A stretch of DNA of 64,000 nucleotides from Candidatus Brockarchaeota archaeon (GTDB lineage Archaea; Thermoproteota; EX4484-205; JAAOZP01). The stretch lies in assembly GCA_017601395.1 (NCBI GenBank), contig JAFNIQ010000001.1, forward strand, positions 16,542 through 80,541. The letters are read 5' to 3'. The position numbers and the translations under genes were made by a program. The notes below the pieces were generated by a model, which was not told where the DNA came from, made no database searches, and saw only the letters and a list, made by a program, of their open reading frames with translations. Shown here piece by piece: positions 196 to 48,461 of this stretch; position 1 is the stretch's first letter, and the number at the start of each line of letters is the position of its first letter.

Positions 196-216
196 TAACT
201 CGGAAACCAGAAAAAT

Positions 217-23055: not shown

Positions 23056-24005
23056 TCCTCCAGCCTCCTTCCGGTTAGCTTTAGAAAAACATCTTCAAGC
23101 GTAGGCTTGACTACGCTTACACTCAACACCCTTACTCCTTTCTCACCGAGGATTAGTATGGTCTTAGGCAGATCCTCGTCGGGGTCGTCAGTATGAACAC
23201 GTACTTCGCCGTTACAACTATAAACGTTTCCCCAACGGCTCTTTAAAACAGCAGAAGCATTCTCGACTTGTTCAGGAACGGGCTTAATCACTAGCACAGC
23301 TGGCGGGGCATAGAGTTTTTTAAGCTCCTCAGCACTGCCCTCCGCGATTAACTTACCCTTGTCTATTATTGCAACCCTGTTTGCAAGTCCTTCTGCCTCG
23401 TCAACAAGATGAGTCGCCATGAGGATGGTAACTCTGTTTGAAACTTTTTTGCGTAACAATTCTAGGACGCTTCTGCGCATAGCCGGGTCTAAAGCTGTAG
23501 TCGGCTCATCAAGTATCAGCAGCTCAGCCTCAATGGCTAGGGACAGTATGATTGAAGCGAGTTTCATCTGCCCCGTTGACAGTTTGGAAGAGAGCTTGGT
23601 TGCCAACTCCTGAACACCCAATTTTTCAAAAAGCCACTTAGCCTCCTGGCGGACAGTATTCCTGTTAAAACCGTATAACGATGCGTAGAAATCAACATTC
23701 TCCATTACTGTTAGCCAAGGATATAGTGGTGGAGTCGCTGGAAGATAGGAGATTTTTAAACGCGTTGACGGATCGAAAGGACTACCCCCAAGAACCCTAA
23801 TGCTTCCAGACGTCGGCTTCATAACGCCAGCTATAATGTTGAACAACGTTGACTTGCCTGCACCATTCGGCCCTATGAAAACGTATACCTCGCTAGGCCT
23901 AACCGTGAAGCTGACCGCGTCCAGCGCGACGACACTGTTATATGATTTAGAAATTCCTTGAGCAGCAACCACTTCCTGCCCCATGATTCTATCACATTGT
24001 TTCAA
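23052..24005 (-). CDS. ABC transporter ATP-binding protein
   Basis: Walker A GPNGAGKSTLFN, signature LSTGQMKLA, Walker B LILDEPT. Confidence 0.85.
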   Translation of the reverse strand: MKQCDRIMGQEVVAAQGISKSYNSVVALDAVSFTVRPSEVYVFIGPNGAGKSTLFNIIAGVMKPTSGSIRVLGGSPFDPSTRLKISYLPATPPLYPWLTVMENVDFYASLYGFNRNTVRQEAKWLFEKLGVQELATKLSSKLSTGQMKLASIILSLAIEAELLILDEPTTALDPAMRRSVLELLRKKVSNRVTILMATHLVDEAEGLANRVAIIDKGKLIAEGSAEELKKLYAPPAVLVIKPVPEQVENASAVLKSRWGNVYSCNGEVRVHTDDPDEDLPKTILILGEKGVRVLSVSVVKPTLEDVFLKLTGRRLEE

Positions 24006-26171: not shown

Positions 26172-28643
26172 CTAGTAGTGCGATACTGTTATTCTCTTCC
26201 TGAGCTCTGGTTTTGAGAGCGGCCTATCCAGCTTTACCAGAATCCTTTTCTCAACACGCGGGGGAAGGTCGAAGAAGTTATCGCTGAACTCTGCTTTCAC
26301 CCCTCTAATCCTTACTTCGCATGCTTTTACAACATTGTTCGAAACCAGGGTTAGCTCATAGGTTGCACCGTCCTTTCTGCCAAGCTTCATTCTAATTCTA
26401 GGCTTGGGAAGCGTAATATGCTTCACTTTTTCAAGGAATACCACGTCATACCTTGGCTCAGAGTCTTCAGGCTCGAAAACGCATACTAGAAAATTGCTGA
26501 ACCTGTCTTTCACTCTTAACTCGCTTAGGCTTAGCTCCATACAGGGCTTTGAAGAATTCGCCTGTACAACAACCTCCATCTCTACTCCTGCCTTCCTGTT
26601 CCCCTTCAGGTCGAAAGACATGATCCTAAGCCTGCCCTTCACAGGTTTAAGAAGATCATTGCAAACCCAGGCCTCCACCTTATCCTGCTTAACAAGCAGG
26701 CTAACGTTAACGGGGTCGAATGCCCTCTTCACGTAGTAGTATGAAGCCTTAAGGTTACCGTAATAGTCGATCAGGCTCCAGCTGAGCACTGGCCAACAGT
26801 CGTTGAGCTGCCATATCAAAGCTCCCCCCGTCTTAAACTTCCTCCTCCTCCAGTGTTCTACACCCGTCTTCATAGCTTCCCCTTGGTTTATTTGAGTCAA
26901 GTAGACAAACCTGCTCAGGTTTACAGCCAGCTTGAAATGCAACAGAATGAAAAGCCAGAGTCTCTCCTGCCCAAAATGCTGCTTATTATGGAATTCGATG
27001 ACCCTGCTCTGCGGATCCCTGTCCCCGGGAAGAGTGAACCTTCTAATCGTTTCCATCGAGGGTGCCGACTGGAAGCCGAATTCGCTTATGAACCTACCCT
27101 TATCATTAAGGTACTCCGTGTAATCTCTTAGCATAGACCAAACCTCCCAGTTATGCCTGTCTCCCTCGCTTTGCGAATTAGGATCGTCACCCCCATATGG
27201 GCTACTCGGCCAGTAGAAGGTTGCAGGGTCAAGTTTAGAGCAAACCTCTGGAAGTATCTTGTGATAGATCGTCTCGCCATAGAACCTATCCTTCATGCCG
27301 TACCAATGCGCCTTGAACCCCCAGTGATTCTCGTTGTTACCACACCATATTGCTAGGCAAGCGTGATTCCTGAGCCTCCTCACCACTTTCTCAGCCTCCT
27401 TTCTAACTAATTCGAAGAACCATTCTTCCTCAGGGTACTCTGCGCATGCGAACATGAAGTCCTGCCAGACAAGTATCCCCTTCTCGTCGCAAAGCTCGTA
27501 GAAAGCCTCATCCTCATACACACCGCCGCCCCAGACTCTTACCATGTTCATATGCGCCTCCTTCACCCTGCTTAGAAGATAATCGTAAACCTTCCTGCTG
27601 ACCCTAGTTAGGAAGGAGTCTGCAGGAACCCAGTTTACCCCTTTACAGAAAACTGGAACATTGTTAACTCTGAAGAAGAACGTTTTACCCTCTTCATCCT
27701 TCTCCTGAACCACTTCGATCCTTCTTATTCCAACTTTCTTTTTAACCATGTCTAAAACACCCTTCGAGCCCTCAACAACAATCTCCAAGTCGTAAAGGTT
27801 TTGCTCACCATAACCGTTTGGCCACCATAGTTTCGGATTCTGAATGTTAAACTCGATTTTAACATCGTTTAATCCGGGTGAAACATCCACATGTTCCTCC
27901 CTAACCTGTTCTTCGCCGAAACCCTTCACCCGAGTCATCAGCTTCACACCACCCGTTTCGAAGGCCTCTATAGAGACGCTTACACTTATCTTCGAGCTTT
28001 TAAGGTCGCTGCTAAGTTCGCTGGAAAAATGGAAGCTTTCAATCTTACACACATCGTAAGCTTTAAGCTCCACGCTTCGCCAAATCCCTGAGGTTCCCAG
28101 TCTCGGGCCCCAATCCCAGCCGAAGGAGTATTGCGCCTTCCTACCGTAAGCGACTGGGGGATAGAACGCTCCACCCAGCTTAACGCTGCTCTTGTCATAC
28201 ATTTCCTCAAGAACCCTTTTAGGCGAATCAAGCCTAACTACTAGTGTGTTTTTCCCTTCTTTTAAAAGATCTTTAACATTAAACTCATGCTCGTGAAACA
28301 TGTTGGCTGTCCTGCCGACCTCTTTCCCATTGAGCCAGATTGTTGCAAAAGTATCCAAGCCGTGAAACTTGAGCTCAACATGGTCATGGTTGAGAAAGTC
28401 TTTGCCTACGTGAAACTCTTTCATATACCACCAATCCTTATCCTCCACCCAAGCTACCTCAAGCTCGTTCATTCTGAAGAACGGGTCGGGGATCTTTCTA
28501 TTCCTCAAAAGGTCAAGATGGACAACGCCCGGCACGGTTGCCTTCAACCATGGGCCTGAGCTCGGCGGCGTCTTCTCATCTCTCCCGCATTCTTTGAAAA
28601 ACCATTCCCCGTTAAGACTTATGGTTTCCATGAGTTTCCGCAA
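26172..28643 (-). CDS. Glycoside hydrolase family 2 (beta-mannosidase-like)
   Basis: N-terminal GH2 sugar-binding block (WLNGKEVGRTANMFHEHEFNV). The acid/base region …AIWCGNNE… matches the GH2 WxGxNE motif. Length 823 aa, no signal peptide. Confidence 0.75.
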   Translation of the reverse strand: MRKLMETISLNGEWFFKECGRDEKTPPSSGPWLKATVPGVVHLDLLRNRKIPDPFFRMNELEVAWVEDKDWWYMKEFHVGKDFLNHDHVELKFHGLDTFATIWLNGKEVGRTANMFHEHEFNVKDLLKEGKNTLVVRLDSPKRVLEEMYDKSSVKLGGAFYPPVAYGRKAQYSFGWDWGPRLGTSGIWRSVELKAYDVCKIESFHFSSELSSDLKSSKISVSVSIEAFETGGVKLMTRVKGFGEEQVREEHVDVSPGLNDVKIEFNIQNPKLWWPNGYGEQNLYDLEIVVEGSKGVLDMVKKKVGIRRIEVVQEKDEEGKTFFFRVNNVPVFCKGVNWVPADSFLTRVSRKVYDYLLSRVKEAHMNMVRVWGGGVYEDEAFYELCDEKGILVWQDFMFACAEYPEEEWFFELVRKEAEKVVRRLRNHACLAIWCGNNENHWGFKAHWYGMKDRFYGETIYHKILPEVCSKLDPATFYWPSSPYGGDDPNSQSEGDRHNWEVWSMLRDYTEYLNDKGRFISEFGFQSAPSMETIRRFTLPGDRDPQSRVIEFHNKQHFGQERLWLFILLHFKLAVNLSRFVYLTQINQGEAMKTGVEHWRRRKFKTGGALIWQLNDCWPVLSWSLIDYYGNLKASYYYVKRAFDPVNVSLLVKQDKVEAWVCNDLLKPVKGRLRIMSFDLKGNRKAGVEMEVVVQANSSKPCMELSLSELRVKDRFSNFLVCVFEPEDSEPRYDVVFLEKVKHITLPKPRIRMKLGRKDGATYELTLVSNNVVKACEVRIRGVKAEFSDNFFDLPPRVEKRILVKLDRPLSKPELRKRITVSHY

Positions 28644-32858: not shown

Positions 32859-34964
32859 ATGTTTAAGCTTTACAAAACGCCTCCTGAAAACGTCTTTAGT
32901 TTAAAAAAAGGATGGCCTAAGGATTTTTATACCCTAAAACTTTATAAGTTCGCAATAAGTATTTTATGTGGTGAAAAGAGTTTGAGTGAGACTAAAACGG
33001 TCTCCGTCATAGAAGAGTTAAAAGCAGGTTTTACCGTTAAGGCAATAATCCTTGCAATAGTCTTCGGCATTATAGGACTCTTCGCAAACATAGCTACATG
33101 GTGGGGCCTAGGGATAAGCTTGGAACCTGTTTTTGCAGGTAGGGTAGGGGCGCCAATATACCCCCCATACGGGCTCGTTTTTATACTGGTTCTTGTAAGC
33201 CTATTCATGAAGGCCCTGACAATCCAGGAGATTGCGGTGATCACTACAATAGCGTTCATAACTGCAGACAGCCCGTTCGTCATCGGCGCCTTCTTACAAT
33301 TCATATTTGCAGGAACCTACTTGGTTAAGACCAACCCGAACGTGGAGGCCCTGCTTAAGTATTACCCGCCGCTGTGGACCCCGGGCGACTATGACCTGAT
33401 CGCCCCAGCTTGGGCGGGAGGGGCAGCCGTACCATTGGGCAGGTTGCTCCCCTACCTAGCGTTCTGGATGATAATGATAATCATTTGGTGTCTAATGATG
33501 GTTTTCCAAGCCGCGTTAATCAGGCTGCAGCTGATTAAAAAAGAGAGGCTCCCGTTCCCAATGATGATTCCGATTAACGAGATGCTTTCACAGCATCAGA
33601 AAGGAACCTTTACGCAATACATGAAGAAGCTTCCGTTCATAGCAGGGATAATACTAGGATGCATAATAGGAATACTTGGGGCTTTAAACTATATTATTAA
33701 ATTCACGACAGTGTTCTTCGCATTCGGACAGTTCTACCAGCAATGGTTCGCCGACCTTATGAGCTCGATCTCTCAAAACACGATACAATCCTGGTGGATG
33801 TTCATACCCGCGGATGCTGCAATCATGTACCTTGCCCCCTTAGACATTCTTTCCTCAATAGTCATCTGGCTGTTCATCTTCCAAATTCTGTTCCCACTGG
33901 TCCTCGTCAACACTGGGGTGATAACGCCTAACACGAACCCGGCTGGTACAGGTCCCTTCCCATGGCTAAACTTCAGCTACTACTGGGCCCCGTTGGCGAT
34001 AGGCATCTGGACAATAGTCTTCGGCTACAAGACTTATGCTGAGAGCTTGAAGAAGAAGGAGTTTGCCCCGGGTGAGCTCCCCAATTCAATCGCATGGTAC
34101 GGCTTCGCAGCCACATGGCTTCTCTGGCTAATCCTGTGGGTCATATTCGGAGCAAACGTTCTCCCGTTGCTAGTGGGCTTCATCGTGTGGTTCCTGTATA
34201 CGACGGGTATGGTTGCTGTCTGCGGGGCAACAGGTACCTGGGTAGCTGGAGGAGACGCTGTTCCCGCGAGATTCTTAGCGTGGGGAGTAGGCACTGGAAT
34301 AGGCCTGTTCCCAGCAAGCGGTGCGGCTGCTAAAACTCAATCCGCGTGGGCAACGATGGCCGGCGTCAGCATAACTGCCAGCATGGGTGGAGTGATTCAT
34401 CAGAACACGCATTCCGCTTGGGCCTACACGTCAACCTACACGATGGTTGAACCAGCTAAGGTGAAGGAAACAGACATTCTAAAGTCGCACATCCTAGGAA
34501 TACTTATAACGGTGCTTATCGGTGTTCCAGTTGCCGTCTACATAATCTACGGGACTGGAATAGGCCAGTTGAAGGCCTGGGGCCTCGGCAGCGGTGCAAA
34601 CATCACCGGCTTCCAAGTGCCGTGGGTAGTGGCTGATTCAGCACCGCCTGCGGGCTTCCACTGGTGGATGTTCCCACTGGCTATAGTCGTGGTCGGCATC
34701 TTGTTCTTCCTGAGAGCTAGGTTCGCATGGTTCTTCTTCAGCCCGTATGCGTTATTCTTCTACTCTGGAATGTGGCTGATAAACGCCGGGGTAGCGTGGA
34801 TACTTAAACTCATAACGCTTAAAGTGTTCGGAGCAAAGGCCTACGAAGAGGTTGGAGTACCCGTAGCAATAGGCTTCATGGTTGGCGTCACTCTCATGGC
34901 CACTATAATCATGGGAGTGAACTCTGCTACCGGAGGAATATCCGTAGGACCGACAGGCTATTAG
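32859..34964 (+). CDS. Hypothetical giant polytopic membrane protein (701 aa, more than 14 TM), paralogue A; family not assigned
   Basis: Hydrophobic helices run the full length. It shares an E-R-L-P-F-P…I motif with the 639-aa protein at 39638..41557. Confidence 0.6.
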   Translation: MFKLYKTPPENVFSLKKGWPKDFYTLKLYKFAISILCGEKSLSETKTVSVIEELKAGFTVKAIILAIVFGIIGLFANIATWWGLGISLEPVFAGRVGAPIYPPYGLVFILVLVSLFMKALTIQEIAVITTIAFITADSPFVIGAFLQFIFAGTYLVKTNPNVEALLKYYPPLWTPGDYDLIAPAWAGGAAVPLGRLLPYLAFWMIMIIIWCLMMVFQAALIRLQLIKKERLPFPMMIPINEMLSQHQKGTFTQYMKKLPFIAGIILGCIIGILGALNYIIKFTTVFFAFGQFYQQWFADLMSSISQNTIQSWWMFIPADAAIMYLAPLDILSSIVIWLFIFQILFPLVLVNTGVITPNTNPAGTGPFPWLNFSYYWAPLAIGIWTIVFGYKTYAESLKKKEFAPGELPNSIAWYGFAATWLLWLILWVIFGANVLPLLVGFIVWFLYTTGMVAVCGATGTWVAGGDAVPARFLAWGVGTGIGLFPASGAAAKTQSAWATMAGVSITASMGGVIHQNTHSAWAYTSTYTMVEPAKVKETDILKSHILGILITVLIGVPVAVYIIYGTGIGQLKAWGLGSGANITGFQVPWVVADSAPPAGFHWWMFPLAIVVVGILFFLRARFAWFFFSPYALFFYSGMWLINAGVAWILKLITLKVFGAKAYEEVGVPVAIGFMVGVTLMATIIMGVNSATGGISVGPTGY

Positions 34965-34975
34965 ATCCAAAACCT

Positions 34976-34991
34976 CTTTTTTTGTTTTTTT
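34976..34991 (+). terminator. Oligo-T tract (ctttttttgttttttt) 12 nt after the stop of the 701-aa membrane protein; archaeal-type intrinsic terminator candidate
   Basis: A T-rich run of about 15 nt directly downstream of the TAG at 34962-34964. Confidence 0.4.
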
Positions 34992-35120
34992 GAGCTAAAG
35001 GCTTAGTTGCTTCCATTCGCCTTAAGCCTCCCTATCGACCCTTGAGGGCATGGGCTTTAAAAACATTAGGAGGTTTTAACGACGTAAAGTTTAAATCAAT
35101 CTTGATGGAGTTCCACGTTA

Positions 35121-38100
35121 ATGATAGTGGTTCGACGAAAGCATTTGCTTGTTATTGTGTTTTTAATGATGCTTGTTGCCCCTCTCATAGTAATACAGGG
35201 GAATCGGGAGGCCGTTGAAGAAAAAACTTGGTTAAACCAGGAAGCCCCATTGGTTTCAGCAGACAGGATAAGGGACTATGTAGCGTTGTTTTCGTCAATA
35301 CAGTCAAGGTTCACAGGCTATCCTGGGTCCCTAGAAGCAGCCCAAATCATAATGGACAAGTTTAACGAATCTGGGCTGAAAGTTAGCCTTTTCGAATACA
35401 CGGTGCTGGTTCCGTATGACTCAGGCTCATACATGAAAGTGGGCGGCAGAATGATTAAGGCCTATGGGCTCTACCCTAATGTCGTAGCCACGGGTTTGAA
35501 AAAGGCTTCCGGAAGGCTTGTCTACGCTGGTCACGGTACTCCGGAGGAGCTTAGGGGACTTAACGTGAATGGTAACATAGTCCTCCTCGAGTTTAACTCA
35601 GGGTCTGCATGGGTAGACATGGTTAAGCTTGGTGCATCTGGAATCGTTTTCCTGGAGGACGGTGACACGAATCGCTTTGAAGCATTGAGAAAAATCTCTT
35701 CTGTCCCACTGGATACTCCAAGAATATATGTAGTGGGCCAGGAAGCGTCTCAGCTCAGAGAAATCGCTAGAAATAATCCGGATGCAGAGCTTTTTAACGG
35801 TATGGAGTGGAGAGAAGTTGAGGCTGTTAACGTGATTGGGGAAATGAAGGGTGTCGAAGACCCGTCTAAAGTAATCATTATAACGGTGAACTATGACTCC
35901 GGGTCGATTGTCCCAGGGATCGCTCCGGGGGCTGATGAAGCCATAGGTATTTCTGTCATGCTCGAATTCATCAGATCTTTGAAACAGCAGGGCCTCTCGC
36001 CGAGATACACAGTGCTTTTTATAGCGATGTCTGGACATTGGCAGGCCCTAGCCGGTGCTAGAAGCTTCGTGGAACAATTCTACTTTAACAATTCCGCTAT
36101 AGGCAGGGAAGTCTTCCCGTATCTCGTCATAGACATTAAGATTAGCTCAGGAAGCCCGCACTTAAACCTTGTTTACAGCGGCATGATGTACTCCATTAAT
36201 ACTCAGTATATTGCAAGCAGGTTCAGAGACCTCCGAATATTTTTTGCAAATTCAATTAAATCTTTCATTAACTCTTTCCCAAGCTATGGCAAAAAGGTTT
36301 TGACCAGCAACCTATACCCCGGCCTCTACGGCATCGCGTATGACTCGGCCAGTCCCGGTTTTCAGAAGGGCCTTGCCTTCAAGCATATTCTCGAAATGGA
36401 GCCTTTTGAGCTGGCTAACAGCATTGGGCTCGGAATAATTACTTTCGACGACTTCAGGTATCGCGTTTTCACCCCGTCTGACAGGCTGGATTTCATCGAT
36501 TTCCAGAACGTCATACCTCAAGCACAGCTAACATTCCAGATCCTGTTCGACCTGTTGAATGCTCCGGTTGAAGAATGGTATCCAGGCAGTTGGGAGGGTT
36601 TAAGACCGTTGAGAATGGGTGAAACCTACACTGGAGTTGGTTTCACTGTGTTAAAGGTTGAAGTAGTTGAATACGACCCTACTACGCCAGGCCTATACAG
36701 CCCGGTTTCAAACGCTTTCGTCACGGTGGGGAGCACGTTGGACCAATTCACGCTGATGTTTTCCAAATCGGATTCCTCAGGCTTCGCAGTGTTCAGGGGT
36801 TTAAGGCCATATCCTGAGGCGACGACTGCGTTGCAAACCCCTATTCAGAGTTACGTGATCGACGAGGAGGGGAGAATAATCTATGCTCCAGACAGGGGAC
36901 AGCATGGTGCCGGAACATATCCTTCAAGCGTAACGATAGTCTCACCTGAACAATTCACGAGGAACGTTGTGTTTAAATGCGGGAGCGCCGTCATGTTCGA
37001 TTTAACCGACCCGGACACTCTGCAGGCTGCAGTCTCTCCAAGCTCGATGTTTGGAACCACGAATGCTTATTCGGCGCAACTCAGGAATTACGGTGGCTAC
37101 GAGACCCCGCTAACGATAAGCGTGATGGTGATGCAGATACCTGGATACTCTATTCTAGACTCGTTCGGCTACGAGTTCGACCCCATTCTGTCGGTTGCAC
37201 AGGTTTACGCCCCGCCCCGCATCAGGTTCGGCTTCGTTGTTAAAAGCACGTCTATGGCTAAAACGGTTGCAGTCTATACGAATGTGACTCTGCAGAACCA
37301 GGATGGGTACGGGTATTATTTGGGTAAAGAGGGGGACAGGCTGCTCGTAAAGGGTGGAATACCCGGCATGTTCATGGAGATGTTGACATTAGCATATGGC
37401 AGGTATTTGGCTCAAGCAGACATTCAAGTCCTGGACCCAAAGACGATGGAGAATTTGAATTATGCGATAATGTTTAACCAGACGCTTCTTCAGACGGCTT
37501 CGAAAAAGGATTACAGCGGGTTCTTGACGAGCGCTTTAATGGCTTGGGGGTTCTCCAGCAAGGCTTACCAAAGCTCTTTGAGCGTTGTCCGCGACGCGGT
37601 TACGAGCATAATTCTCGTATTCGCTTTAGCAATACCCTTCATCCTTCTGTTTTCCTCCCTTGTTTACAATTTGAGCAGCGGCTTCAGAAGCGTCGCCCTT
37701 ACTCTTGCTGTGGCGCTGTCCGTGGCGTTGCTTTTAACAGTATTCCACCCGGGTTTTGGGTTAGCGGTAAACGTGCCTGCAATATTCATAGGGACACTGA
37801 TAGTTGCCCTGGTTATTCCAGTGATGTTCTTCCTGTTCTCCAACTTCTCCACAGGGCTTTCCAGGTTGAGGAGAGAAGTTCTTGGTGCACACTTCCTTGA
37901 GAGAAGCGGATTCGACGTTTCGTTTTCAGCCGTATCCATAGGAATAGGCAACTTGAAGAAGCGTAAGTTTAGAACAGTATTAACGATGCTGTGCATAGTA
38001 ATCATAAGTTTCTCGCTTTCGTCTCTGACTTCCGTGACGGAGATAAGGGCTTTAAGAGTTACCCCGACGCCCACCGAGGTTACTTGCAACGGAGTGCTGC

Positions 38101-39638
38101 TGAGAACAGCTAACTTCGCCCCGTTAAACAGGAAGTTGATCGACCTAGTGTCAACCTACATATCTGGCAAGACACTTTATGCTCCGAGGTACTGGGTTTA
38201 TCTTCCTTCCACTCCTGGAGAGGGGACTGCTGGCACAATAGTGATATCCTCTGAGAAAAGCAAGGCTTTGATCTACGCGGCTGTCGGAATAAGCCCTGTA
38301 GAGTTGAAAGCATCTTTCAAGCAGTTTGAAAAAATACTTTTAGAAGGATCCATGTTTAAAGAAGAAGAGGTTTTCTCAGCATTATTGCCGAACAGTCTTG
38401 CGGAAAGCCTGGAGGTGAAGACAGGCGAATATGTCTGGGTTAACGGCTTCCGCTTAACAGTAGCAGGCATACTTAACACGACTGCAATTCTAGCATATGT
38501 GAAGGATTCAGATGGTTTCGTGGACGTCCTGCCCATGGACACGTATATTCTTTCGAACGAGAGAACTCCTCCCCGTGCTGAGGCAGCGTTGAGCCCAGGA
38601 TCCGTAATATTCGTGCCCGCCGGCCTGGTTGAACTGATTCCGGAGGCATGCTTGACAAGCGTTTTCATACCGGCAGACGGGATGGTTTTCGAGGAACTTT
38701 ACGAGAAATGCGGCGAGGTTTTCTCAGCTTTCGAAGGTTTAAACATTTATCTGACGTATAACGGCACTGTATACCGGTTCTCCAAGGAGAACGTTATCTC
38801 GCTATTCGGCTTCCAGTTCATTCTAATACCCATGGTGATCGCGGGGCTGATAACTATGTCGACGATTCTAGGCGGAGTCATGGAGAGAATACGGGAGGGC
38901 TACATATATAGCAGTCTAGGCCTAGCACCGGTTCAAGTAGGCTTAATGTTCTTCGGGGAGAACATCATATACGCTATCGTAGGCTCGATGACGGGCTATC
39001 TCGGCGGAATCTCAGCCTCATACTTGACGAGGAAAATAGGCTTGATAAACCTCCCTGTGAACTACACGTCGTCATTCGTCATGATAGCTGTCGGTCTGGT
39101 GATAGTGCTGGTTCTGGCAGCGTCGCTCTACCCGTTCTACAGAGTCTCCGTCACAGTAACCCCGTCTCTAGAGAGGAAGTGGCGTCTCCAGACTAAGCCG
39201 AAGGGAGACTCGTGGGACATACCGATACCTTTCCGTATAAAGGAGGATGATAGGGCTGCAGGAATGGCTGTTTTCCTCCATGAGTATCTCTGGAACAAGA
39301 GGATAGAGAGGGCAGGAGTCTTCTCCATTGAAAACGTTGAGGTCAGCAAGATAGAGTCTGGAATTAGTGTTAAGTCAAGAGTATGGCTGGCGCCATTCGA
39401 GCAGAACATAAAGCAGGATATGAACATAGTGATATTGAAGAGCAAGACGGAGCAGAATTTCCTTATTTTAATGAATCTAACCAGGGTGTCCGGACCCTAC
39501 GACTCATGGGTCAGGTTCAACTATCCCTTTATTGATGAGATAAGGAAGCAGATGCTGATATGGAACGTTCTCAATCCAGAGGAGCGGGAGAAATACATAC
39601 GTATGGCTAGGGATCGTAGCCTGGTAGGTGAGAAATAA
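35121..39638 (+). CDS. Giant membrane protein (1505 aa): signal/anchor, M28-peptidase-like (possibly non-catalytic) ectodomain, large beta-rich middle region, and an FtsX-like permease module (TM plus extracytoplasmic domain plus 3 TM)
   Basis: M28-like blocks (NVIGEMKGVEDPSKVIIITVNYDSGS…GADEAIGISVMLEF). An FtsX-type N-terminal TM (LKKRKFRTVLTMLCIVIISFSLS). FtsX C-terminal helices (…VIAGLITMSTILGGVMERIREGYIYSSLGLAPVQVGLMFFGENIIYAIVG…). Confidence 0.7.
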   Translation: MIVVRRKHLLVIVFLMMLVAPLIVIQGNREAVEEKTWLNQEAPLVSADRIRDYVALFSSIQSRFTGYPGSLEAAQIIMDKFNESGLKVSLFEYTVLVPYDSGSYMKVGGRMIKAYGLYPNVVATGLKKASGRLVYAGHGTPEELRGLNVNGNIVLLEFNSGSAWVDMVKLGASGIVFLEDGDTNRFEALRKISSVPLDTPRIYVVGQEASQLREIARNNPDAELFNGMEWREVEAVNVIGEMKGVEDPSKVIIITVNYDSGSIVPGIAPGADEAIGISVMLEFIRSLKQQGLSPRYTVLFIAMSGHWQALAGARSFVEQFYFNNSAIGREVFPYLVIDIKISSGSPHLNLVYSGMMYSINTQYIASRFRDLRIFFANSIKSFINSFPSYGKKVLTSNLYPGLYGIAYDSASPGFQKGLAFKHILEMEPFELANSIGLGIITFDDFRYRVFTPSDRLDFIDFQNVIPQAQLTFQILFDLLNAPVEEWYPGSWEGLRPLRMGETYTGVGFTVLKVEVVEYDPTTPGLYSPVSNAFVTVGSTLDQFTLMFSKSDSSGFAVFRGLRPYPEATTALQTPIQSYVIDEEGRIIYAPDRGQHGAGTYPSSVTIVSPEQFTRNVVFKCGSAVMFDLTDPDTLQAAVSPSSMFGTTNAYSAQLRNYGGYETPLTISVMVMQIPGYSILDSFGYEFDPILSVAQVYAPPRIRFGFVVKSTSMAKTVAVYTNVTLQNQDGYGYYLGKEGDRLLVKGGIPGMFMEMLTLAYGRYLAQADIQVLDPKTMENLNYAIMFNQTLLQTASKKDYSGFLTSALMAWGFSSKAYQSSLSVVRDAVTSIILVFALAIPFILLFSSLVYNLSSGFRSVALTLAVALSVALLLTVFHPGFGLAVNVPAIFIGTLIVALVIPVMFFLFSNFSTGLSRLRREVLGAHFLERSGFDVSFSAVSIGIGNLKKRKFRTVLTMLCIVIISFSLSSLTSVTEIRALRVTPTPTEVTCNGVLLRTANFAPLNRKLIDLVSTYISGKTLYAPRYWVYLPSTPGEGTAGTIVISSEKSKALIYAAVGISPVELKASFKQFEKILLEGSMFKEEEVFSALLPNSLAESLEVKTGEYVWVNGFRLTVAGILNTTAILAYVKDSDGFVDVLPMDTYILSNERTPPRAEAALSPGSVIFVPAGLVELIPEACLTSVFIPADGMVFEELYEKCGEVFSAFEGLNIYLTYNGTVYRFSKENVISLFGFQFILIPMVIAGLITMSTILGGVMERIREGYIYSSLGLAPVQVGLMFFGENIIYAIVGSMTGYLGGISASYLTRKIGLINLPVNYTSSFVMIAVGLVIVLVLAASLYPFYRVSVTVTPSLERKWRLQTKPKGDSWDIPIPFRIKEDDRAAGMAVFLHEYLWNKRIERAGVFSIENVEVSKIESGISVKSRVWLAPFEQNIKQDMNIVILKSKTEQNFLILMNLTRVSGPYDSWVRFNYPFIDEIRKQMLIWNVLNPEEREKYIRMARDRSLVGEK

Positions 39639-41557
39639 TGGAAGAGGCTGCACGTGAAAAAGAAGCCTTCATCCCCGGGCTGACAATCGTATCGGTCTCC
39701 GCAGTATTGTTCGGGCTTGTGGTAATCGTGCCCGCAATAATCTATTTAGGCTGGGCTGTCGGCTCTTTAGGTGGAACCGAGAGGTTCATCCCGGTTTTCG
39801 TCACAATCCTCCTATTCACCGAGGCGGGGAGGCTCGTTAAGAGGTATATAACATCGCAAGAGGCTTACATAATATACTTCATGCTTCAAGCCATAGCCCT
39901 ATGGTTCGTCGGCGGAGGAATGTTCGGCGACTTCCTTATAAGGTATTACTACAGGTCCGCCCCTTACACTATCCTATATGGTATAGCTGAAAAGCTTCCC
40001 ACATGGTATGTCCCTGAGCTCGGGAGCTACGGCCCACTCCACAGGACTTTCCTCTCCCCAGACTGGGTGATTCCAATATCGATTTCTCTAGCTGTTAACG
40101 TTTGCGTGCTGATGATAGATTACGGTGTTTCTTTCATAACAAACATGCTCTACATAGAGATAGAGAAGCTCCCGTTCCCCGTCGCACCCATAGACTACCA
40201 GGCGATTTCAACCCTTACTGAGAGAACACCTGAGAAAATAATGTACTTCTCTTTCGCCGCTGTGATAAGCTTCATCTACGAGTTCGCCATCTACGGGATT
40301 CCAAACATAACCTCGATTTTCCTAGGCAGGGCTATAACCGTCATACCGTATCCCTGGGTGGACTTAACCACGGGGATTGAAAGAATCCTGCCGGGAGCAG
40401 TTTTTGCAGTCGGAACCGATATTGCTCAATACATGGTGGGCTGGCTTATCCCGTTTAACGCCGCGGTATGGATGTTCATCGGGTCGGTGGCAGTCTGGGT
40501 TTTCGGAAACTCTATAGCGCTCAGGATTGACCATCCCTACTTCAGCATGTGGCAGAGAGAATGGACTTACGGCGCGTCAATCCAATGGTGGTGGCAGAGA
40601 GCAATCTACGACCTGTGGGCAAGTCCACAAGTAGGTTTAACACTCGGGATCGCGCTTGGAATACTTGCTGTAGGAGCCAAAAACATTGCGCGAGCAATCC
40701 TCTCCCTCAGACATCTTTCGGCAGAGCAGCTTAAAACATCATACTTGCCTTTCAGCTGGATAGTTGCTTTAATCGCCGCCGGGTCTATAGGCGGGTTGCT
40801 TGTTTCAGTCTCCCTTGCCCCAGAACTATGGTTCGTCTGGGTGGTGACCTGGACGATAGTTCCGTTTATTCAAGGTATTCTGACAGCCAGGGCTACTGCT
40901 GAAACCGGGTTATCTGTCACCATACCCTACATTAGGGAAGCGTTCTTCGTTTCTTTCACAAGGCCTGGAGACGTGGTCCCGTGGGTGGTTCCGACGCATG
41001 TGACAAGCAGCGCCGGGATAATTACGCACAGGGTCTACGTGGCTAAGCTCCTGAAAGTCAGGCCCCTAGACTACTACAAGGCCTACCTCATATTCTTCAT
41101 AGTGGCTATTCTCCTATCCCTGCTGTACGTTTCAATATTCTGGGCGATGACGCCCATACCTTCTGCCTTCTACCCGTACGCCAGCTACTCCTGGCCTATT
41201 TCAGCCCTCTACTTCTCCCTATGGGTCTCTAGGTCGATCGAGATTTTCAAGGTGGACGTGATAGCTATCTCAAGCGTCTTATCCTTCATAATGGTCGTCG
41301 TCTCCTCCCGTTTCCCAACGCAATACTTCTCCCCAATAGGCTTCCTATACGGTTTTCAAAACATTCCCGCTTACACGCTTCCACCATTGATCGGAGCCCT
41401 GATCGGAAAATGGCTTGAGAGGAGAATGGGTAAGGATAAATGGGTTGTGCGGAGAGGAGTGATAATCGCCGGAACATTCTGCGGGATCGCGCTTGCAGTA
41501 GCAGCCGCTGTCGCCATCACTATAATGGGGAGAGCGATAACAGCTAAACCATTCTAA
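39638..41557 (+). CDS. Hypothetical giant polytopic membrane protein (639 aa), paralogue B. The start overlaps the upstream stop (TAATG).
   Basis: About 14 TM helices. It shares an E-K-L-P-F-P-V-A-P-I motif and overall architecture with the protein at 32859..34964. Confidence 0.6.
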   Translation: MEEAAREKEAFIPGLTIVSVSAVLFGLVVIVPAIIYLGWAVGSLGGTERFIPVFVTILLFTEAGRLVKRYITSQEAYIIYFMLQAIALWFVGGGMFGDFLIRYYYRSAPYTILYGIAEKLPTWYVPELGSYGPLHRTFLSPDWVIPISISLAVNVCVLMIDYGVSFITNMLYIEIEKLPFPVAPIDYQAISTLTERTPEKIMYFSFAAVISFIYEFAIYGIPNITSIFLGRAITVIPYPWVDLTTGIERILPGAVFAVGTDIAQYMVGWLIPFNAAVWMFIGSVAVWVFGNSIALRIDHPYFSMWQREWTYGASIQWWWQRAIYDLWASPQVGLTLGIALGILAVGAKNIARAILSLRHLSAEQLKTSYLPFSWIVALIAAGSIGGLLVSVSLAPELWFVWVVTWTIVPFIQGILTARATAETGLSVTIPYIREAFFVSFTRPGDVVPWVVPTHVTSSAGIITHRVYVAKLLKVRPLDYYKAYLIFFIVAILLSLLYVSIFWAMTPIPSAFYPYASYSWPISALYFSLWVSRSIEIFKVDVIAISSVLSFIMVVVSSRFPTQYFSPIGFLYGFQNIPAYTLPPLIGALIGKWLERRMGKDKWVVRRGVIIAGTFCGIALAVAAAVAITIMGRAITAKPF

Positions 41558-41571
41558 GTTAGCCTCTGTGC

Positions 41572-42660
41572 TTATTTCCTTTTTAGCGCGCCTATCTCGG
41601 AAGTATAGAGAATTAGTCGGTCTACCTCCGTGCTCCATCCAAGCTCCCTGGTGTGGTTCGGATCCACCGCCTCAACCCATATTAGCCACCTGTCGCCCCT
41701 TATCCTGTCGAATAAGGCTTGAGCATAAGTGTGAATCGGGTACTCGCCGTGTTCGAAACGTGAAAGCGGTGTCCAAACTTTTTCGAAAATGGTTTCTAAA
41801 TTAAGCCTTCCTAAATCAATACTGTAGGCGACAAAATGTTTGGTAAGCGCGTTCCCCCTTATCACATCCAGCGTTTTCGTGCCGATGAAAATCAGACCCG
41901 TTGAGCCTGGGATTATTGAGCCGCTCAGCAGGAAGAAGTCCGGTTGACTCTTACCGTCAACAGTAGGCACTCCAAGCTTAACCCAGTTCTTCCCATCGCT
42001 ACCGACAGCCAACGCCGTCTTCACGATGCTTGTGCCCGCCCTCCTAGCCTTGTAGAGGCAGAAGTATCTGCCATCAACTATGTCTATAGTAGCGTCTCTC
42101 GATTCTCCGCTGTCGTATTCCTCGCTTCCTCTGATTACGAAGCCTTCAGGCTCCCATGGGCCGGAAGGATCTTCCGAAGTCAGTAGAAAGGTTTCCCACC
42201 TGCTCTCCGTGAAAGCCTCTCCCTCGACAACCAAGTTCTCCCTTGAAACATTCAGCGAAAGATAAAGATGGTATCTCCCACTCAAGGGGTCTTTTAAAAG
42301 CTGCTGGTTCTCAATGCTTAGAATCTGGTTTTTCGTCATCTCGCTCAACTCCTCCTTAGTGATCCATGTTACCAGATCATAATTCTCACCATCCTTCGAC
42401 CTGTATATTTCAACAGCGTACCCCCTCCTCATCTCCTTCATCTCTCTCGGCCTACTCGTCAACCAGTATTCACTATTCTCCTCATCGATCCACATTTTTC
42501 CAGCGCCGCACCAAGAGCCGGGGTTGAAATTGGGAGGGTCGAGGAGCACCTTCATAAACCTTCTTTTGGAGAAGATGGCTTGAGGTGGGTATAGGCCACA
42601 CCAGCTCATAACAACGTTGAGAAAAGAAATGTTATTTAAGGCTTTCGCCATTGTTTTCAC
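41572..42660 (-). CDS. Hypothetical protein, possibly a beta-propeller glycosidase-like fold (GH43/GH32/GH130-type?). The start may be the internal Met (MKVLLDPP…).
   Basis: ORF of 362 aa with no TM. Repeated beta-strand-rich segments. It sits among glycoside hydrolase genes. No firm family motif was recognised. Confidence 0.35.
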   Translation of the reverse strand: MKTMAKALNNISFLNVVMSWCGLYPPQAIFSKRRFMKVLLDPPNFNPGSWCGAGKMWIDEENSEYWLTSRPREMKEMRRGYAVEIYRSKDGENYDLVTWITKEELSEMTKNQILSIENQQLLKDPLSGRYHLYLSLNVSRENLVVEGEAFTESRWETFLLTSEDPSGPWEPEGFVIRGSEEYDSGESRDATIDIVDGRYFCLYKARRAGTSIVKTALAVGSDGKNWVKLGVPTVDGKSQPDFFLLSGSIIPGSTGLIFIGTKTLDVIRGNALTKHFVAYSIDLGRLNLETIFEKVWTPLSRFEHGEYPIHTYAQALFDRIRGDRWLIWVEAVDPNHTRELGWSTEVDRLILYTSEIGALKRK

Positions 42661-42695: not shown

Positions 42696-43810
42696 CTATG
42701 AAAGCCTGAGCATTCTACCTGGCCACTGCTCGCGGATAGAGGGCACTGCGTGAAGAATGAAGCCTCTTCGGCCGAAAACTTGGAAAGCATTCTGAACTGC
42801 TTTACGCACAGTCTCTGGCTTCCCCTGGCCTATGTGGACGGGCGCGCTAACACCTCCCCCAGATACGCTTTCTACCGCCAAGCTTCTGAGCCAGGATCTT
42901 CATGTCTTGGTTTCCAAGAGCCGGCTCGATGCCGTCATAAGCGTCGAAGGGGAGTTCAGCCAAATAGTCTAATATGGGCATCACGCCTGTGCAAACCGTG
43001 TAGCTGCAAACCCTGTCGGCGGAATGTACCTGCTCAGCCTCCTCTCGCAACCTTTCCCCCTGAAAGGTTTGTAGCTGCCTAGGCTCCAGAAATCCGTGGT
43101 CTCGTAGAAGCCGTTGCGGCGCACAATATCCACGCCATTTTCGAGAGCTAACTCCAATTGGTGCGTTGTTGTCTCATGCTCAATTTCCAAGAATCATTCT
43201 ATTACCTTGGGGTGTTTAATTGAAAGGTAGATACTCCTTGTGCCAAAAAGCAGGAAAGCCGCTGTTAGCTCCATGTCGATTGTAGCCATAGTGGCTGACC
43301 CTAACTGTTCGACCAAGGCTCTAGCCTTCACCATTTTTTCCTGAAAGGCTGCAACCTCCCGCCTTCTTGGGGGCATGTGCACATAAGCCCAGCGCTCAAC
43401 GTCCTCCATGTTTTCAAGCCAAGGCTTAACGAAGATGGAGACGTTGAAGTCTGAGAGTAGCGGTATTTCCATGCCATGTGGCCAATCAGGGGTTCTCCTA
43501 ACAGCGGCGGTAAGAGGCCCGGCGGGAGTCATGATCTCCTTGTGAAGAATGGGATAGAGCTCACGCAGGTTCTCCCAAACCCTAAAAGATACTTCAGGAC
43601 GCTGGCCCGCTGGAACACCCAAGGGTATAACAGGGTCGATGCCCCGCTCCTCCACTTGGAACCGGAGTGCTTGCTCACCATATGGGTCTTGCCGTTGCCA
43701 GTCCCTATACCTACCAGGCTCAACCTGGGACTCATGAAAAAAGTTGAGAGCGGCACGTAGTCCACATCCCCTCGACGCATAGCTACTATTACGCGTTCAC
43801 GAGGGTTCAT
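42696..43810 (-). pseudogene. Disrupted uroporphyrinogen-decarboxylase-family (MtaA/CmuA-like) gene, split over at least 4 reading frames
   Basis: Minus-strand fragments 43529..43810 (MNPRERVIVAMRRGDVDYVPL…), 43194..43655, 42981..43190, 42847..43050 and 42696..42881 align colinearly with successive segments of the intact paralogue at 47364..48461. One example is …CTGVMPILDYLAELPFDAYDGIEPALGNQDMKILAQKLGG… against TDGNVNLLIPKLIEAGFTALQPMEVKAGMDVVELKEKYG. Confidence 0.55.
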
Positions 43811-43920: not shown

Positions 43921-45051
43921 TTAGAATATGTCTTCCGCGTAGGCTACACCTGCCGCATGTATGCCCCATTCTCGATATTTTAAGCATGTGGCTGAGTAAT
44001 AAGCCGTATAGATGGTTCCGTCATCAAGCTGGACACTACTTGGGTATCCGCAGTCAGCGTCTGTCGCATAAGAGACTAAGGCGGCTCTCCTGTTAAACAT
44101 CCATGATCGGCCGCCGTCGAGGCTTATCACTGCATGAACCCCGTAAGGCACCCTCCGGTGTCCAAAGGTTAGCAAAACCTTCCCGCTCTTAAGGTAACAA
44201 AGGTCCCCGGGGTGTTCACCGCCAACAGTCACCTGTTTAGGCTCAGACCATGTGTAACCCATGTCTCGAGAGCGACTGATGGCAACGCATTCGCCGCCAC
44301 CCTGAGCATGAGGTCCGCGGAGGGCTGCCAACAAGTCTCCATCGGGTAATTGTAGAAGAGCAGTTTCATTATATCCTTTAGCGACGATGGTTAAATCCTT
44401 CCATGTGAAACCATTGTCTTCGGAGCGTAGAATATAGCTGGTCTCTATCGAGCCTTCTACAGTATATTCTTGAGAGTAAACAGACATAAGAATAGTTCCA
44501 TCATCTGTCTGAAGCATTCTCCCATAGGGTGAAACCGCCCCTTTAAACGGAAACTCCAGCGGCTCGGGCTTACTCCACTCCCTACCACCGTTGGTCGACC
44601 TCGTTACGAACATTTGCCACCTCATCCCATTCCTCTTCCACAACCCATTCTCATAACCCCAGACTCTTACAAAGGCAACCAGCAGAGTACCGTCCTTCAA
44701 TTGACATAAGGCCGGATTCCTATCATCAGTCTGAGAAACGGTTACAATTCTTGGCATTGTCCATGTCTTACCCCCGTCTTTAGATAACGAGAGCTCTAAG
44801 CGGCCTCGTTGACCAACATGGTAATCCCCCATGCGGAAGACAACTGCTAGGTTTCCGTCACGGAGTTTAGTCAAAACCGGGAAATATCCACCCATAGGAG
44901 TTATAAGATATCTTCTCACCCGCTTGAGGGAACCAACCATCGCCTCATCGCAAAACTGCATTCCATACTTGAACTCCTCATCGGCTTTCATGTTTTTCCA
45001 CGGCCAACCGTTTTTCCGTATGCGGGCGTTCTTATTAATTTTGATGTTCAT
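43921..45051 (-). CDS. BNR/Asp-box repeat beta-propeller protein (sialidase/exo-alpha-sialidase-like glycosidase fold)
   Basis: Five Asp-box motifs (SKDGGKTW, STNGGREW, SEDNGFTW, SRDMGYTW, SLDGGRSW) spaced about 60 aa apart. Confidence 0.7.
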   Translation of the reverse strand: MNIKINKNARIRKNGWPWKNMKADEEFKYGMQFCDEAMVGSLKRVRRYLITPMGGYFPVLTKLRDGNLAVVFRMGDYHVGQRGRLELSLSKDGGKTWTMPRIVTVSQTDDRNPALCQLKDGTLLVAFVRVWGYENGLWKRNGMRWQMFVTRSTNGGREWSKPEPLEFPFKGAVSPYGRMLQTDDGTILMSVYSQEYTVEGSIETSYILRSEDNGFTWKDLTIVAKGYNETALLQLPDGDLLAALRGPHAQGGGECVAISRSRDMGYTWSEPKQVTVGGEHPGDLCYLKSGKVLLTFGHRRVPYGVHAVISLDGGRSWMFNRRAALVSYATDADCGYPSSVQLDDGTIYTAYYSATCLKYREWGIHAAGVAYAEDIF

Positions 45052-46105: not shown

Positions 46106-46834
46106 ATGGAAGGAAGTGAGAAGATGAGAACAGTAAAAGTGCTGTCTAGGAGAAGTTCTACTATCTTAAGTTTTGCTCTAATTTCCTTTCTCGCGGCAAT
46201 AGTGCTGTTACAGGGTAAGGTGAGGAGTCAAGCGGCCGGTCCAGAAAAATTAATCCCGATCAATATTCAAGCAATAAAGCTCGAGAATCCTACAAACGAT
46301 CCGTACAAATGGCCCCCTCCATTCCTAAGGGAAATCATGTTGGATGACGGAAGAGTATTGAAAGTTAACCTCTGGGGCTTCATCCTCAGGGCTACAGGGC
46401 AACTTTTTAAAGAGGAGGGGTATTTCTGGATTGCATCTTGGAAGTTCATGTATATTGCCGGACCCCCTAAAGGTTCAAGCTCCGCGAAAGCCACCTTTCA
46501 TTTCAAATTCTTGACCTTTGAGAGGCCGGAGCCATCTTCAATAGGCGAACCAACCGGAGGAGTGCTTTCTACTCGAGAAGCTCGCATACATGGCGGTTTC
46601 TATGAACCGGCGGGTGTACCGATATGGGTAACAATCACGTGGGAACCAGCGGATAAGCCAATAATAGTATCTGCCTACTGCGCCGAAACCAGAAGAGGGC
46701 AAGGCTATCAAATCACTGGAGGTAGCTGGACCGGAAACCTGACGGTACTCGACTCGGGAATCAACTATGTTGTAGTGGGGAACCCAAATGACGATGTCAC
46801 TATAACGTATTCAGGCGAGTTAATCTGGCCATGA
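46106..46834 (+). CDS. Hypothetical secreted protein with an N-terminal signal/anchor
   Basis: Hydrophobic N-terminal segment (ILSFALISFLAAIVLL). No recognisable motif. It is divergent from the ArsR-like gene. Confidence 0.45.
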   Translation: MEGSEKMRTVKVLSRRSSTILSFALISFLAAIVLLQGKVRSQAAGPEKLIPINIQAIKLENPTNDPYKWPPPFLREIMLDDGRVLKVNLWGFILRATGQLFKEEGYFWIASWKFMYIAGPPKGSSSAKATFHFKFLTFERPEPSSIGEPTGGVLSTREARIHGGFYEPAGVPIWVTITWEPADKPIIVSAYCAETRRGQGYQITGGSWTGNLTVLDSGINYVVVGNPNDDVTITYSGELIWP

Positions 46835-47363: not shown

Positions 47364-48461
47364 TTATGTATATGCTCCGTATTTTCTGATCAGCTTTATG
47401 TATTCTTGAAATGCGCTGAAAGAAACATCAGGCGGCACACTGTGGTCTGAACATGCTATGTATCCCCCGCCCTTTTTTGCGGCGGGTATCTTGCGGGATA
47501 TTTCAACCTCAATCTCCATGGGGTTGCCAATCTTCCTCGCATCGAGGTTTCCGATGAAGGAAAGGGTCTTCCCATATTTCTCTTTCAGCTCGACAACGTC
47601 CATTCCCGCCTTAACTTCCATCGGCTGTAAGGCCGTGAAACCAGCTTCGATCAATTTGGGGATCAACAGGTTCACGTTGCCGTCAGTATGCAATATGGTC
47701 GGCATATTCCTCACCCTATAGGCAGAGGTCATTTGAGCATGCGCCGGCTTCACGAACTCGTCGTAAACCTTCGGGGAGAAGAACGGCCCCTTGTTGTAAC
47801 CTATATCATCCCAAACCCACAGTCCGTCAACTCCTAGCTTAAGATAGGTTTCCACGATCCTTGAGAAATACTGGCCCAAATGTCTGAAAATATACTTAAC
47901 GAGGCCCGGATCCCTGTGGATCGCGACCAACACCTTGTCCACGCTTTCCCCAAGTATATGTCTAGTTGCTTCAAAAGGACCTATTATCGAGCAGAATACG
48001 GCGTAACGCTCCTTCAACCTCCTTATGCCTTCCTCAAGCTCCCTCTTAAACGGGTATTTGCTGCTTGAAACCCTGATTGGCAGCTCAGGGTCTAATAGGG
48101 GCTCAAGCTTCTCTTTAAAATCCTCAATCGTCGAGACCGATGGTGGTCCAGCAGGATGAGGCGTACCGCTCCTACCGATCCAAGCCTTCACCCTCACGCC
48201 CCAGGAATCTATGTATGTTCTAAACTTATCATTCTCCTCGAGTATGATGGTGTCGTACTTAGGACTTACATCCGGACCTATTAGGTAGATATCGTAGCCA
48301 AAATAATCATGTAAGGAGACTCCTCTAGGCAGGCCCTCGCTATACCATCTCTCAAGGGTTTCGCCCCATGGGAAATCTATGAAGGGAACCCTGTCTGCCT
48401 CCTCGTGGTTTAACACTCTTAACACCCGTTCTCTCGAATCCATGTTTTTCAAAAATCCCAC
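47364..48461 (-). CDS. Uroporphyrinogen decarboxylase family protein (URO-D / MtaA-CmuA-like methyltransferase fold), intact
   Basis: N-terminal SRERVLRVLNHEEADRVP motif, TIM-barrel-length 365 aa, C-terminal …GGGYIACSDHSVPPDV… block. Confidence 0.7.
   Translation of the reverse strand: MGFLKNMDSRERVLRVLNHEEADRVPFIDFPWGETLERWYSEGLPRGVSLHDYFGYDIYLIGPDVSPKYDTIILEENDKFRTYIDSWGVRVKAWIGRSGTPHPAGPPSVSTIEDFKEKLEPLLDPELPIRVSSSKYPFKRELEEGIRRLKERYAVFCSIIGPFEATRHILGESVDKVLVAIHRDPGLVKYIFRHLGQYFSRIVETYLKLGVDGLWVWDDIGYNKGPFFSPKVYDEFVKPAHAQMTSAYRVRNMPTILHTDGNVNLLIPKLIEAGFTALQPMEVKAGMDVVELKEKYGKTLSFIGNLDARKIGNPMEIEVEISRKIPAAKKGGGYIACSDHSVPPDVSFSAFQEYIKLIRKYGAYT

Follow-up and report, generated by a model that had tools for sequence, protein, structure and literature searches.

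We describe here a block of three consecutive membrane-protein genes in a 64,000-nucleotide stretch of the genome of a Candidatus Brockarchaeota archaeon (NCBI GenBank assembly GCA_017601395.1, contig JAFNIQ010000001.1, positions 16,542 to 80,541 of the forward strand; this whole stretch is hereafter the window). The block consists of three large open reading frames (ORFs) in a row on the plus strand, whose products we call P1, P2 and P3 (Table 1). A preliminary description of the same DNA had placed the three ORFs, the oligo-T tract behind the first and the TAATG coupling of the second and third exactly where we find them. Since each of P1, P2 and P3 has dozens of homologues at E values from 0 to 1e-30, we regard all three as genuine genes. 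The nearest relatives of P2, at loci L007 (97% identity) and L008 (93%), come from metagenome-assembled genomes (MAGs) of Brockarchaeota and other Thermoproteota.

Because all homologues of P1 are 654-669 residues long and span only 92-94% of the 701-residue ORF, the true start of P1 probably lies at an in-frame TTG at 32982, which stands behind a TATA-like 'ctttataag' element (~32941) and yields a protein of about 660 residues; the first 41 codons (32859-32981) would then be over-called. The oligo-T tract is a possible archaeal terminator, and direct reading of the DNA reveals A/T-rich TATA-like elements at ~35057 and ~35089, upstream of the ATG of P2.

Table 1. Features of the three-gene block, with positions counted from the first nucleotide of the window.
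Feature	Positions	Residues	Strand	Basis or remark
P1	32859-34964	701 aa	+	ORF
Oligo-T tract tcTTTTTTTgTTTTTTTg	34977-34992		+	direct sequence reading; begins 13 nt past P1 stop
P2	35121-39638	1505 aa	+	ORF
P2 N-terminal signal/anchor helix and linker	35121-35252	1-44	+	hydropathy peak 1-29; low-confidence model helix 3-27
P2 M28-fold domain with inserted PA domain, GCPII/TfR/BSAP-like	35253-36560	45-480	+	AlphaFold model, Foldseek
P2 beta-rich extracellular region	36618-37355	500-745	+	model secondary structure; no match of its own in the Foldseek search
P2 helical stalk and three extra transmembrane helices	37359-37862	747-817 (stalk), 818-914 (helices)	+	hydropathy, models
P2 cytoplasmic linker and MacB/LolC/FtsX-type (type VII ABC) permease	37863-39158	915-948 (linker), 949-1346 (permease)	+	
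P2 cytoplasmic alpha+beta domain, tentatively helix-grip-like (START/Bet v 1/Aha1-C/KA1)	39159-39635	1347-1505	+	
TAATG overlap of P2 stop and P3 start	39636-39640		+	TAA 39636-39638, ATG 39638-39640
P3, probable OPT-superfamily multi-pass membrane protein	39638-41557	639 aa	+	ORF

The layout of P2 was drawn from hydropathy and from two AlphaFold models, one of residues 1-830 (predicted local distance difference test, pLDDT, 87; predicted template-modelling score, pTM, 0.86) and one of residues 800-1505 (pLDDT 82). The earlier proposal that the central gene fuses a peptidase-like ectodomain to an FtsX/MacB-type permease is borne out by Pfam, which gives a partial match to Peptidase_M28 at residues 237-319 and a match to FtsX (PF02687) at 1233-1343 (E = 4.6e-11), and by fold comparison, in which Foldseek searches of the PDB relate the ectodomain to 2EK8, BSAP, GCPII, TfR1 and PaAP (E = 5e-25 to 1e-21). 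The permease has the features of the type VII ATP-binding cassette (ABC) class, namely four transmembrane (TM) helices, a large extracytoplasmic domain that separates the first from the second, and a fold that matches those of solved members, and its parts run in the order elbow region, TM1, extracytoplasmic domain (976-1222), TM2, coupling helix (1255-1272), TM3 and TM4. In every match listed (1302 cluster representatives were matched in all), TM4 is followed by a cytoplasmic domain specific to the family, and at 50% identity the P2-specific domain falls into more than 750 clusters of sequences. Its predicted fold is likened to SRPBCC, START, Bet v 1, Aha1-C and KA1 domains by low TM-scores in Foldseek (target-normalised, TMt, ~0.3-0.4), and no sequence similarity to SRPBCC/START/KA1-type helix-grip domains was found; the helix-grip assignment is weak. 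We know of no characterised precedent for a helix-grip-like domain placed after TM4 of an FtsX domain.

Shorter FtsX-domain proteins of about 980-1050 residues adjoin several modules (L018:8156-11305, L028:761-3871, L023:6426-9359, L063:17691-20747 and L001:14490-17453), and proteins of about 1045-1049 residues that bear the P2-type C-terminal domain were also among the search matches. These suggest a sister architecture that lacks the complete M28 ectodomain.

To read the active site of the ectodomain, we aligned P2 to the Aeromonas aminopeptidase (AAP) and 2EK8 and checked 28 family members. The catalytic general base of AAP, Glu151, is His in 27 of the 28 (H306 in the window P2), and the adjacent zinc ligand Glu152 is Trp or another non-acidic residue in all of them (W307). 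Among the other zinc ligands, His256 is never His in the family (F450 in the window P2), His97 is His in 21 members (N257), Asp117 is Asp or Glu in 22 (D272) and Asp179 is Asp or Glu in 23 (K340). By this alignment, the window P2 keeps one of the five metal ligands and does not have the di-zinc catalytic site that is canonical for M28. The earlier label 'peptidase-like' therefore holds for the fold, which is that of M28, and not for the canonical catalytic site, since the full set of five zinc ligands and a catalytic Glu is not kept. Other positions of the same pocket are strongly conserved: the residue in the column of AAP D99, D259 in the window P2, never varies, and S262 and the S304-G305-H306 motif vary hardly at all. 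The pattern of conservation indicates a remodelled pocket that is still under selection rather than a dead relic. By analogy with the transferrin receptor (TfR) and nicastrin, it looks like a receptor or a non-canonical site. P2 shares with these two non-catalytic proteins the loss of catalytic and zinc residues, the attachment to a membrane protein and a likely receptor role; it differs from them in that the site has not simply degenerated but is rebuilt around an invariant Asp and a Ser-Gly-His-Trp motif. Its M28+PA fold is that of the PA-domain M28 proteins at large (BSAP, 2EK8, PaAP and GCPII/PSMA), but in P2 the domain is fused to a multi-pass permease in place of a single anchor helix.

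Compared with the type VII ABC 'mechanotransmission' systems MacB, LolCDE, FtsEX, HrtBA and YtrEF, P2 has no fused or adjacent ABC ATPase and carries about 900 extra N-terminal residues (M28+PA ectodomain, beta-rich region, stalk and three TM helices). It further differs in its unique C-terminal cytoplasmic domain, in its linkage to two OPT-like proteins, and in having a hydrolase-fold domain that is fused, not recruited, and lacks the canonical catalytic site.

For the outer two genes, the preliminary description had claimed that they are paralogues and that it could place them in no characterised transporter or enzyme family. The second claim is not supported. P1 belongs to the Pfam family DUF6785 (E = 4e-14; 52.4 bits, above the gathering threshold of 25), which was matched by 19/19 P1 homologues tested, while P3 is 48% identical to P0051, a PF03169-bearing protein with the NCBI name 'OPT/YSL family transporter', and PF03169 was matched by 11 of 26 P3 family members (best E = 3.5e-17). 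The first claim stands at the level of profiles and fails at that of single sequences: BLASTP finds no significant similarity between P1 and P3 (E = 0.44), whereas hhalign aligns the two families end to end over 568 columns (probability 98.5%, E = 2e-15, 17% identity), with an E-[KR]-LPFP motif common to both. Because this profile-profile alignment runs end to end, we conclude that P1 and P3 are very old paralogues, probably inside the OPT superfamily (TC 2.A.67), P1 being a multi-pass membrane protein and, by the same comparison, a probable remote member of that superfamily.

The OPT family is one of proton symporters for oligopeptides and metal chelates. OPT proteins are secondary carriers with 16 TM helices, and their prokaryotic members were uncharacterised in the family review; for these, the genes around them and occasional fusions to peptidases point to the uptake of peptides (PMC3061005). 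P1 and P3 resemble the family (PF03169) in being polytopic and in size (~640-660 residues), and P3 family members match PF03169, some of them being named OPT/YSL by NCBI. A crude Kyte-Doolittle scan counts ~12-16 hydrophobic segments in each, against an OPT expectation of 16 or 17 TM helices. They differ from the family in being very divergent, P3 having no Pfam match of its own and P1 being filed as a DUF, and in occurring together, as distantly related paralogues whose pairing with each other and with a MacB-like protein is conserved, an association not described in the OPT review (PMC3061005). Neither contains the NPG and KIPPR motifs of eukaryotic peptide-transporting OPTs, motifs reported for 'many' OPT proteins, not all (PMC3061005). 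Searches of the PDB sequences with both family profiles gave nothing meaningful, so that no solved OPT-like structure serves as an anchor. An NCBIfam search added nothing, and a literature search on DUF6785 returned no paper mentioning it.

The strongest evidence that the three genes belong together comes from their conservation. A scan of the genome collection with an 11-sequence P2 alignment recovered 239 loci in species-representative genomes, and the best 80 of these were analysed by running hidden Markov models (HMMs), built from our own alignments, on their six-frame ORFs. The 80 loci come from Brockarchaeota, Bathyarchaeia, Thermofilaceae, Thermoproteales, Nitrososphaerota, Caldarchaeales and Heimdall-, Hod- and Hermodarchaeota, and a single MAG often holds two to four copies of the module. 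An OPT-like gene stands beside the P2 homologue in 73 loci, a DUF6785 gene in 62 and both in 60, and the loci that lack the full trio are mostly at contig ends. Even three distant P2 homologues (46%, 29% and 24% identity) all have DUF6785 and OPT-like genes alongside, and this includes a locus that looks bacterial by its neighbouring genes.

This linkage persists through rearrangement. With D for the DUF6785 gene, M for the P2 homologue and O for the OPT-like gene, the 55 complete triplets fall into nine arrangements, the most frequent being D>M>O> (26 triplets); M>O>D>, O<M>D> and D<M>O> are among those that come next. At the M>O junction, 39 of 40 loci have no more than 30 nt between the genes, and in 25 the genes overlap. 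The coupling of P1 is looser than that of M and O, since the D>M gap in related loci usually measures 40-160 nt. The pairwise distance matrices of the three proteins are correlated at r = 0.94-0.96, a value reached by none of 999 permutations, and where one genome has paralogous copies of the module, each of the three proteins has diverged to about the same extent (27-28%, 26-32% and 19-23% identity). Taken together, the linkage, the nine arrangements, the co-evolution and the parallel divergence of paralogues indicate that the trio is a functional unit duplicated and inherited whole; it is probably a physical unit as well. The preliminary description had proposed an uncharacterised envelope machine, and the three genes do behave as one uncharacterised envelope unit. 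By its own terms it would have been refuted if the paralogues fell into a well-known family with a mundane role and the three genes were, in addition, not syntenic in other genomes; the first of these is half true, and the second is clearly not the case.

In about 19 of the 80 loci, Asgard archaea included, a soluble protein of about 220 residues lies beside or inside the module (for example L012:6792-7607, L064:16165-16857 and L042:7174-7833). Its two sub-families are joined by hhalign at 98.3%; the family has no Pfam or PDB match, and no homologue was found in the window. It may be a fourth, accessory component.

The block encodes no ABC ATPase, as the preliminary description had observed: a motif search of P1, P2 and P3 found neither Walker A nor LSGGQ, and the conserved module includes no such ATPase across the 80 loci either. 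The window holds five ABC ATPases, each beside its own permeases, and those nearest to the block, by ATPase HMM, lie at 23052-24005 and 52340-53350. The most conserved segment of the P2 family is the TM2-TM3 coupling helix, ERIREGYIYSSLGLAP (1255-1270), whose pattern 'ER.RE..I..LGL.P' matches the canonical FtsX signature and which aligns with ERTREIGILKALGM of the canonical FtsX protein in the window. In all MacB-type systems, the coupling helix is the element on which the ATPase docks, and because this docking site for the nucleotide-binding domain (NBD) is the most conserved part of P2, we favour an ATPase that would be supplied in trans and encoded elsewhere.

A canonical MacB pair lies on the minus strand 15 kb from the block and comprises a 425-residue FtsX+MacB_PCD permease (54980-56257) and a 228-residue ABC ATPase (56259-56945). 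This ATPase is a candidate trans donor for P2, though it is already placed with a partner of its own. An unusually long rhomboid-domain protein (468 residues, 53581-54987, minus strand) is encoded just upstream of the pair. Two other sets of ATPases were considered as module components and set aside: those within 10 kb of the module (~14 of the 80 loci), whose density is close to the window background of five in 64 kb, and the Asgard ATPase neighbours, which belong to a separate cluster of a mini-FtsX protein and two ATPases. In the Asgard loci L046, L057, L064 and L079, this cluster lies 5-7 kb upstream of the module (~2.4-4.6 kb, locus coordinates) and encodes two ABC ATPases together with an FtsX-like protein of only 200 residues, and a protein of ~805 residues without a Pfam match is encoded on the opposite strand between the cluster and the module.

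The genes around the module bear on its substrate. After deduplication, the commonest neighbouring domains are GFO/IDH/MocA oxidoreductase, radical SAM, uroporphyrinogen decarboxylase (URO-D)-like, xylose-isomerase-like TIM barrel and enolase-superfamily domains, with GH30, GH59, GHL10 and CBM_4_9 also common. In the window, the block is surrounded by GH2, GH4 and GH106-like genes and by genes for YdjC, a BNR-repeat protein and a URO-D-like protein, and the richness of the window in carbohydrate-active genes fits a saccharolytic genome of Brockarchaeota type. While OPT and M28 ancestry suggests, by analogy, peptides as the substrate, these neighbourhoods suggest nutrients derived from carbohydrates or methyl compounds, and we consider glycan-derived or methylated compounds as possible as peptides.

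The carbohydrate genes of the window lie at 7639-10638, 20682-21557, 26172-28643, 43921-45051 and 50050-51420 (GH106-like, YdjC, GH2 beta-mannosidase-like, BNR/sialidase-like and GH4). The URO-D-like gene, of the uroporphyrinogen decarboxylase/methyltransferase-like family, is found at 47364-48461 on the minus strand, 6 kb downstream of the block, and the same family occurs beside the module in five to six other loci (L038:6213-7364, L047, L048 and L065-L067), sometimes with B12-binding or radical SAM genes; such neighbours may hint at methylated or methoxylated substrates. Four ORFs without a Pfam match lie directly downstream of the block, at 41572-42660 (minus strand), 42750-43082 (plus), 43194-43655 (minus) and 46106-46834 (plus), and conservation of the 362-residue one among them is limited to the closest relatives, L007, L008 and L017.

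We tentatively interpret the module as a surface capture-and-uptake system, a reading to which we assign somewhat less than an even chance. Among the three roles proposed in the preliminary description, substrate capture, combined with uptake, fits best, while export and surface-layer remodelling lack specific support. P2 would probably form a dimer, like MacB-type permeases and GCPII/TfR, and its ectodomain would be a receptor at the cell surface, capturing a ligand and perhaps processing it non-canonically. The MacB-like core would relay conformational changes between the cytoplasm and the ectodomain, in the way that FtsEX controls external hydrolases. Its coupling helix would dock an ABC ATPase from elsewhere in the genome or, alternatively, answer to the C-terminal domain of P2 itself, and the OPT-like carriers P1 and P3 would import the captured compound on the proton gradient. 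By analogy, several copies of a module per MAG are typical of nutrient-acquisition systems.

A number of observations weigh against this interpretation. To our knowledge, the MacB-type machines studied so far (MacB, LolCDE, HrtBA and FtsEX) expel or extract substrates and do not feed importers. Just 6 of the 80 loci have an ABC ATPase within two genes of the module, and none has one adjacent to it; because no ABC ATPase is consistently near the module, the proposed energy source is hypothetical. No signal of peptidases or peptide catabolism was seen among the deduplicated neighbours of the module, which conflicts with a peptide substrate. The Pfam search of the window P3 gave no match at E<=1, and the prokaryotic OPTs near P1 and P3 have no characterised member (PMC3061005). 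Finally, two P2 homologues from Caldarchaeales and 'Archaeon HR02' (L082:9854-16451 and L085:9857-16542) occur without OPT-like or DUF6785 partners and are followed by a conserved gene pair encoding a 339-residue membrane protein and a 297-residue soluble protein, neither with a Pfam match. This pair is of about the right size for a split OPT gene (339 + 297 residues), an explanation that we rejected on the grounds that there is no HMM signal and that the second ORF is soluble.

Four other explanations can be weighed against the same evidence. Classical peptide scavenging, in which the P2 ectodomain would be an active membrane-anchored exopeptidase, P1 and P3 would take up the resulting oligopeptides and the FtsX part would serve mainly as an anchor or regulator, is unlikely. 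The M28+PA fold is nearest to true aminopeptidases (2EK8, BSAP and PaAP), and the equivalents of H97, D117 and D179, kept in most family members, could make up a mono-zinc site, with the His at the E151 position (27/28) in addition. Elsewhere, relatives of the OPT proteins show a genomic link to peptidases (PMC3061005), and extracellular peptidases have been credited to these archaeal lineages (PMC8065059), although in sediment archaea the number of extracellular peptidase genes is a poor guide to protein catabolism (PMC9123169). Against an active enzyme stand the exchange of Glu151/Glu152 for His-Trp, which extends to essentially all of the family, and the absence of His in the H256 column, to which the window P2 adds N257 in place of H97 and K340 in the D179 column. 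The neighbouring genes, with no signal of peptide catabolism, point away from scavenging too.

We regard as improbable an extraction or export machine of the LolCDE, HrtBA or MacAB kind, in which a trans ATPase would drive P2 to pull a lipid-anchored or hydrophobic molecule from the outer leaflet or to reshape a component of the surface, with the OPT-like proteins as exporters or flippases and the C-terminal domain handling a lipidic ligand. It is established that all structurally characterised MacB-type systems act outward, and the strong fold match of the P2 permease to these systems, as well as the conserved coupling helix, speaks for such a machine. However, several deeply diverged copies per genome, set beside varied catabolic genes, suit nutrient acquisition better than a housekeeping envelope role, and the helix-grip assignment on which a lipidic ligand would depend is weak (TMt ~0.3-0.4, with no sequence match). 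Moreover, the characterised OPT-family members, all of them so far, are importers (PMC3061005).

The remaining explanation of a mechanistic kind dispenses with the ATPase altogether: the MacB-like core would be uncoupled from ABC ATPases and driven or gated by its proton-coupled OPT-like partners or by the C-terminal domain. The lack of any linked ATPase across ~80 loci, set against the linkage of P1 and P3, agrees with this possibility, as do the strict co-evolution of the three proteins and the family-specific cytoplasmic domain after TM4 in every listed match. We nevertheless consider it quite improbable. P2 retains the canonical signature of the NBD-docking coupling helix as its most conserved part, trans-shared ATPases are known to be common in ABC systems, and a proton-driven MacB-type protein is, as far as is generally known, without precedent. 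As for a chance adjacency of three unrelated membrane genes, the putative terminator of P1 and the promoter-like elements of P2 would suit it, but the linkage across phyla in nine arrangements and the highly correlated distance matrices effectively refute it and leave it almost no probability.

The capture-and-uptake reading can also be taken further. The module may represent a new archaeal nutrient-capture class in which an ATPase-free mechanotransducer of MacB type is physically coupled to a heteromeric, proton-driven OPT-like pair, and in which the remodelled M28 pocket (Asp259 and Ser-Gly-His306) forms a new ligand-binding or non-metal catalytic site. We hold this bolder proposal to be a long shot. 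If true, the module would be a secondary transporter coupled to a receptor, of which a genome has several copies with different substrates, and it would be functionally analogous to polysaccharide-utilisation and TonB-dependent systems.

Literature searches on FtsX and M28 in archaea and on M28 proteins and oligopeptide transporters of Bathyarchaeota returned no description of the module. Every part of it comes from a known superfamily; what appears to be undescribed is the assembly, in which a pseudo-peptidase/MacB fusion with a unique C-terminal domain is joined by two OPT paralogues and has no linked ATPase. How an engine of MacB type works without a genetically linked ATPase, and why it is paired with two OPT-like carriers, are questions that this assembly raises.

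The module is abundant, and it occurs in multiple copies in Bathyarchaeia, Brockarchaeota, Thermofilaceae and Asgard archaea, to which a dominant part in the turnover of organic matter in sediments and hot springs is ascribed. The present annotation of P2 as 'M28 family peptidase' or 'FtsX-like permease' is misleading and can inflate the counts of extracellular peptidases in metabolic reconstructions. For the uncharacterised prokaryotic OPT and DUF6785 proteins, in turn, the linkage to P2 provides a functional context that can be tested.

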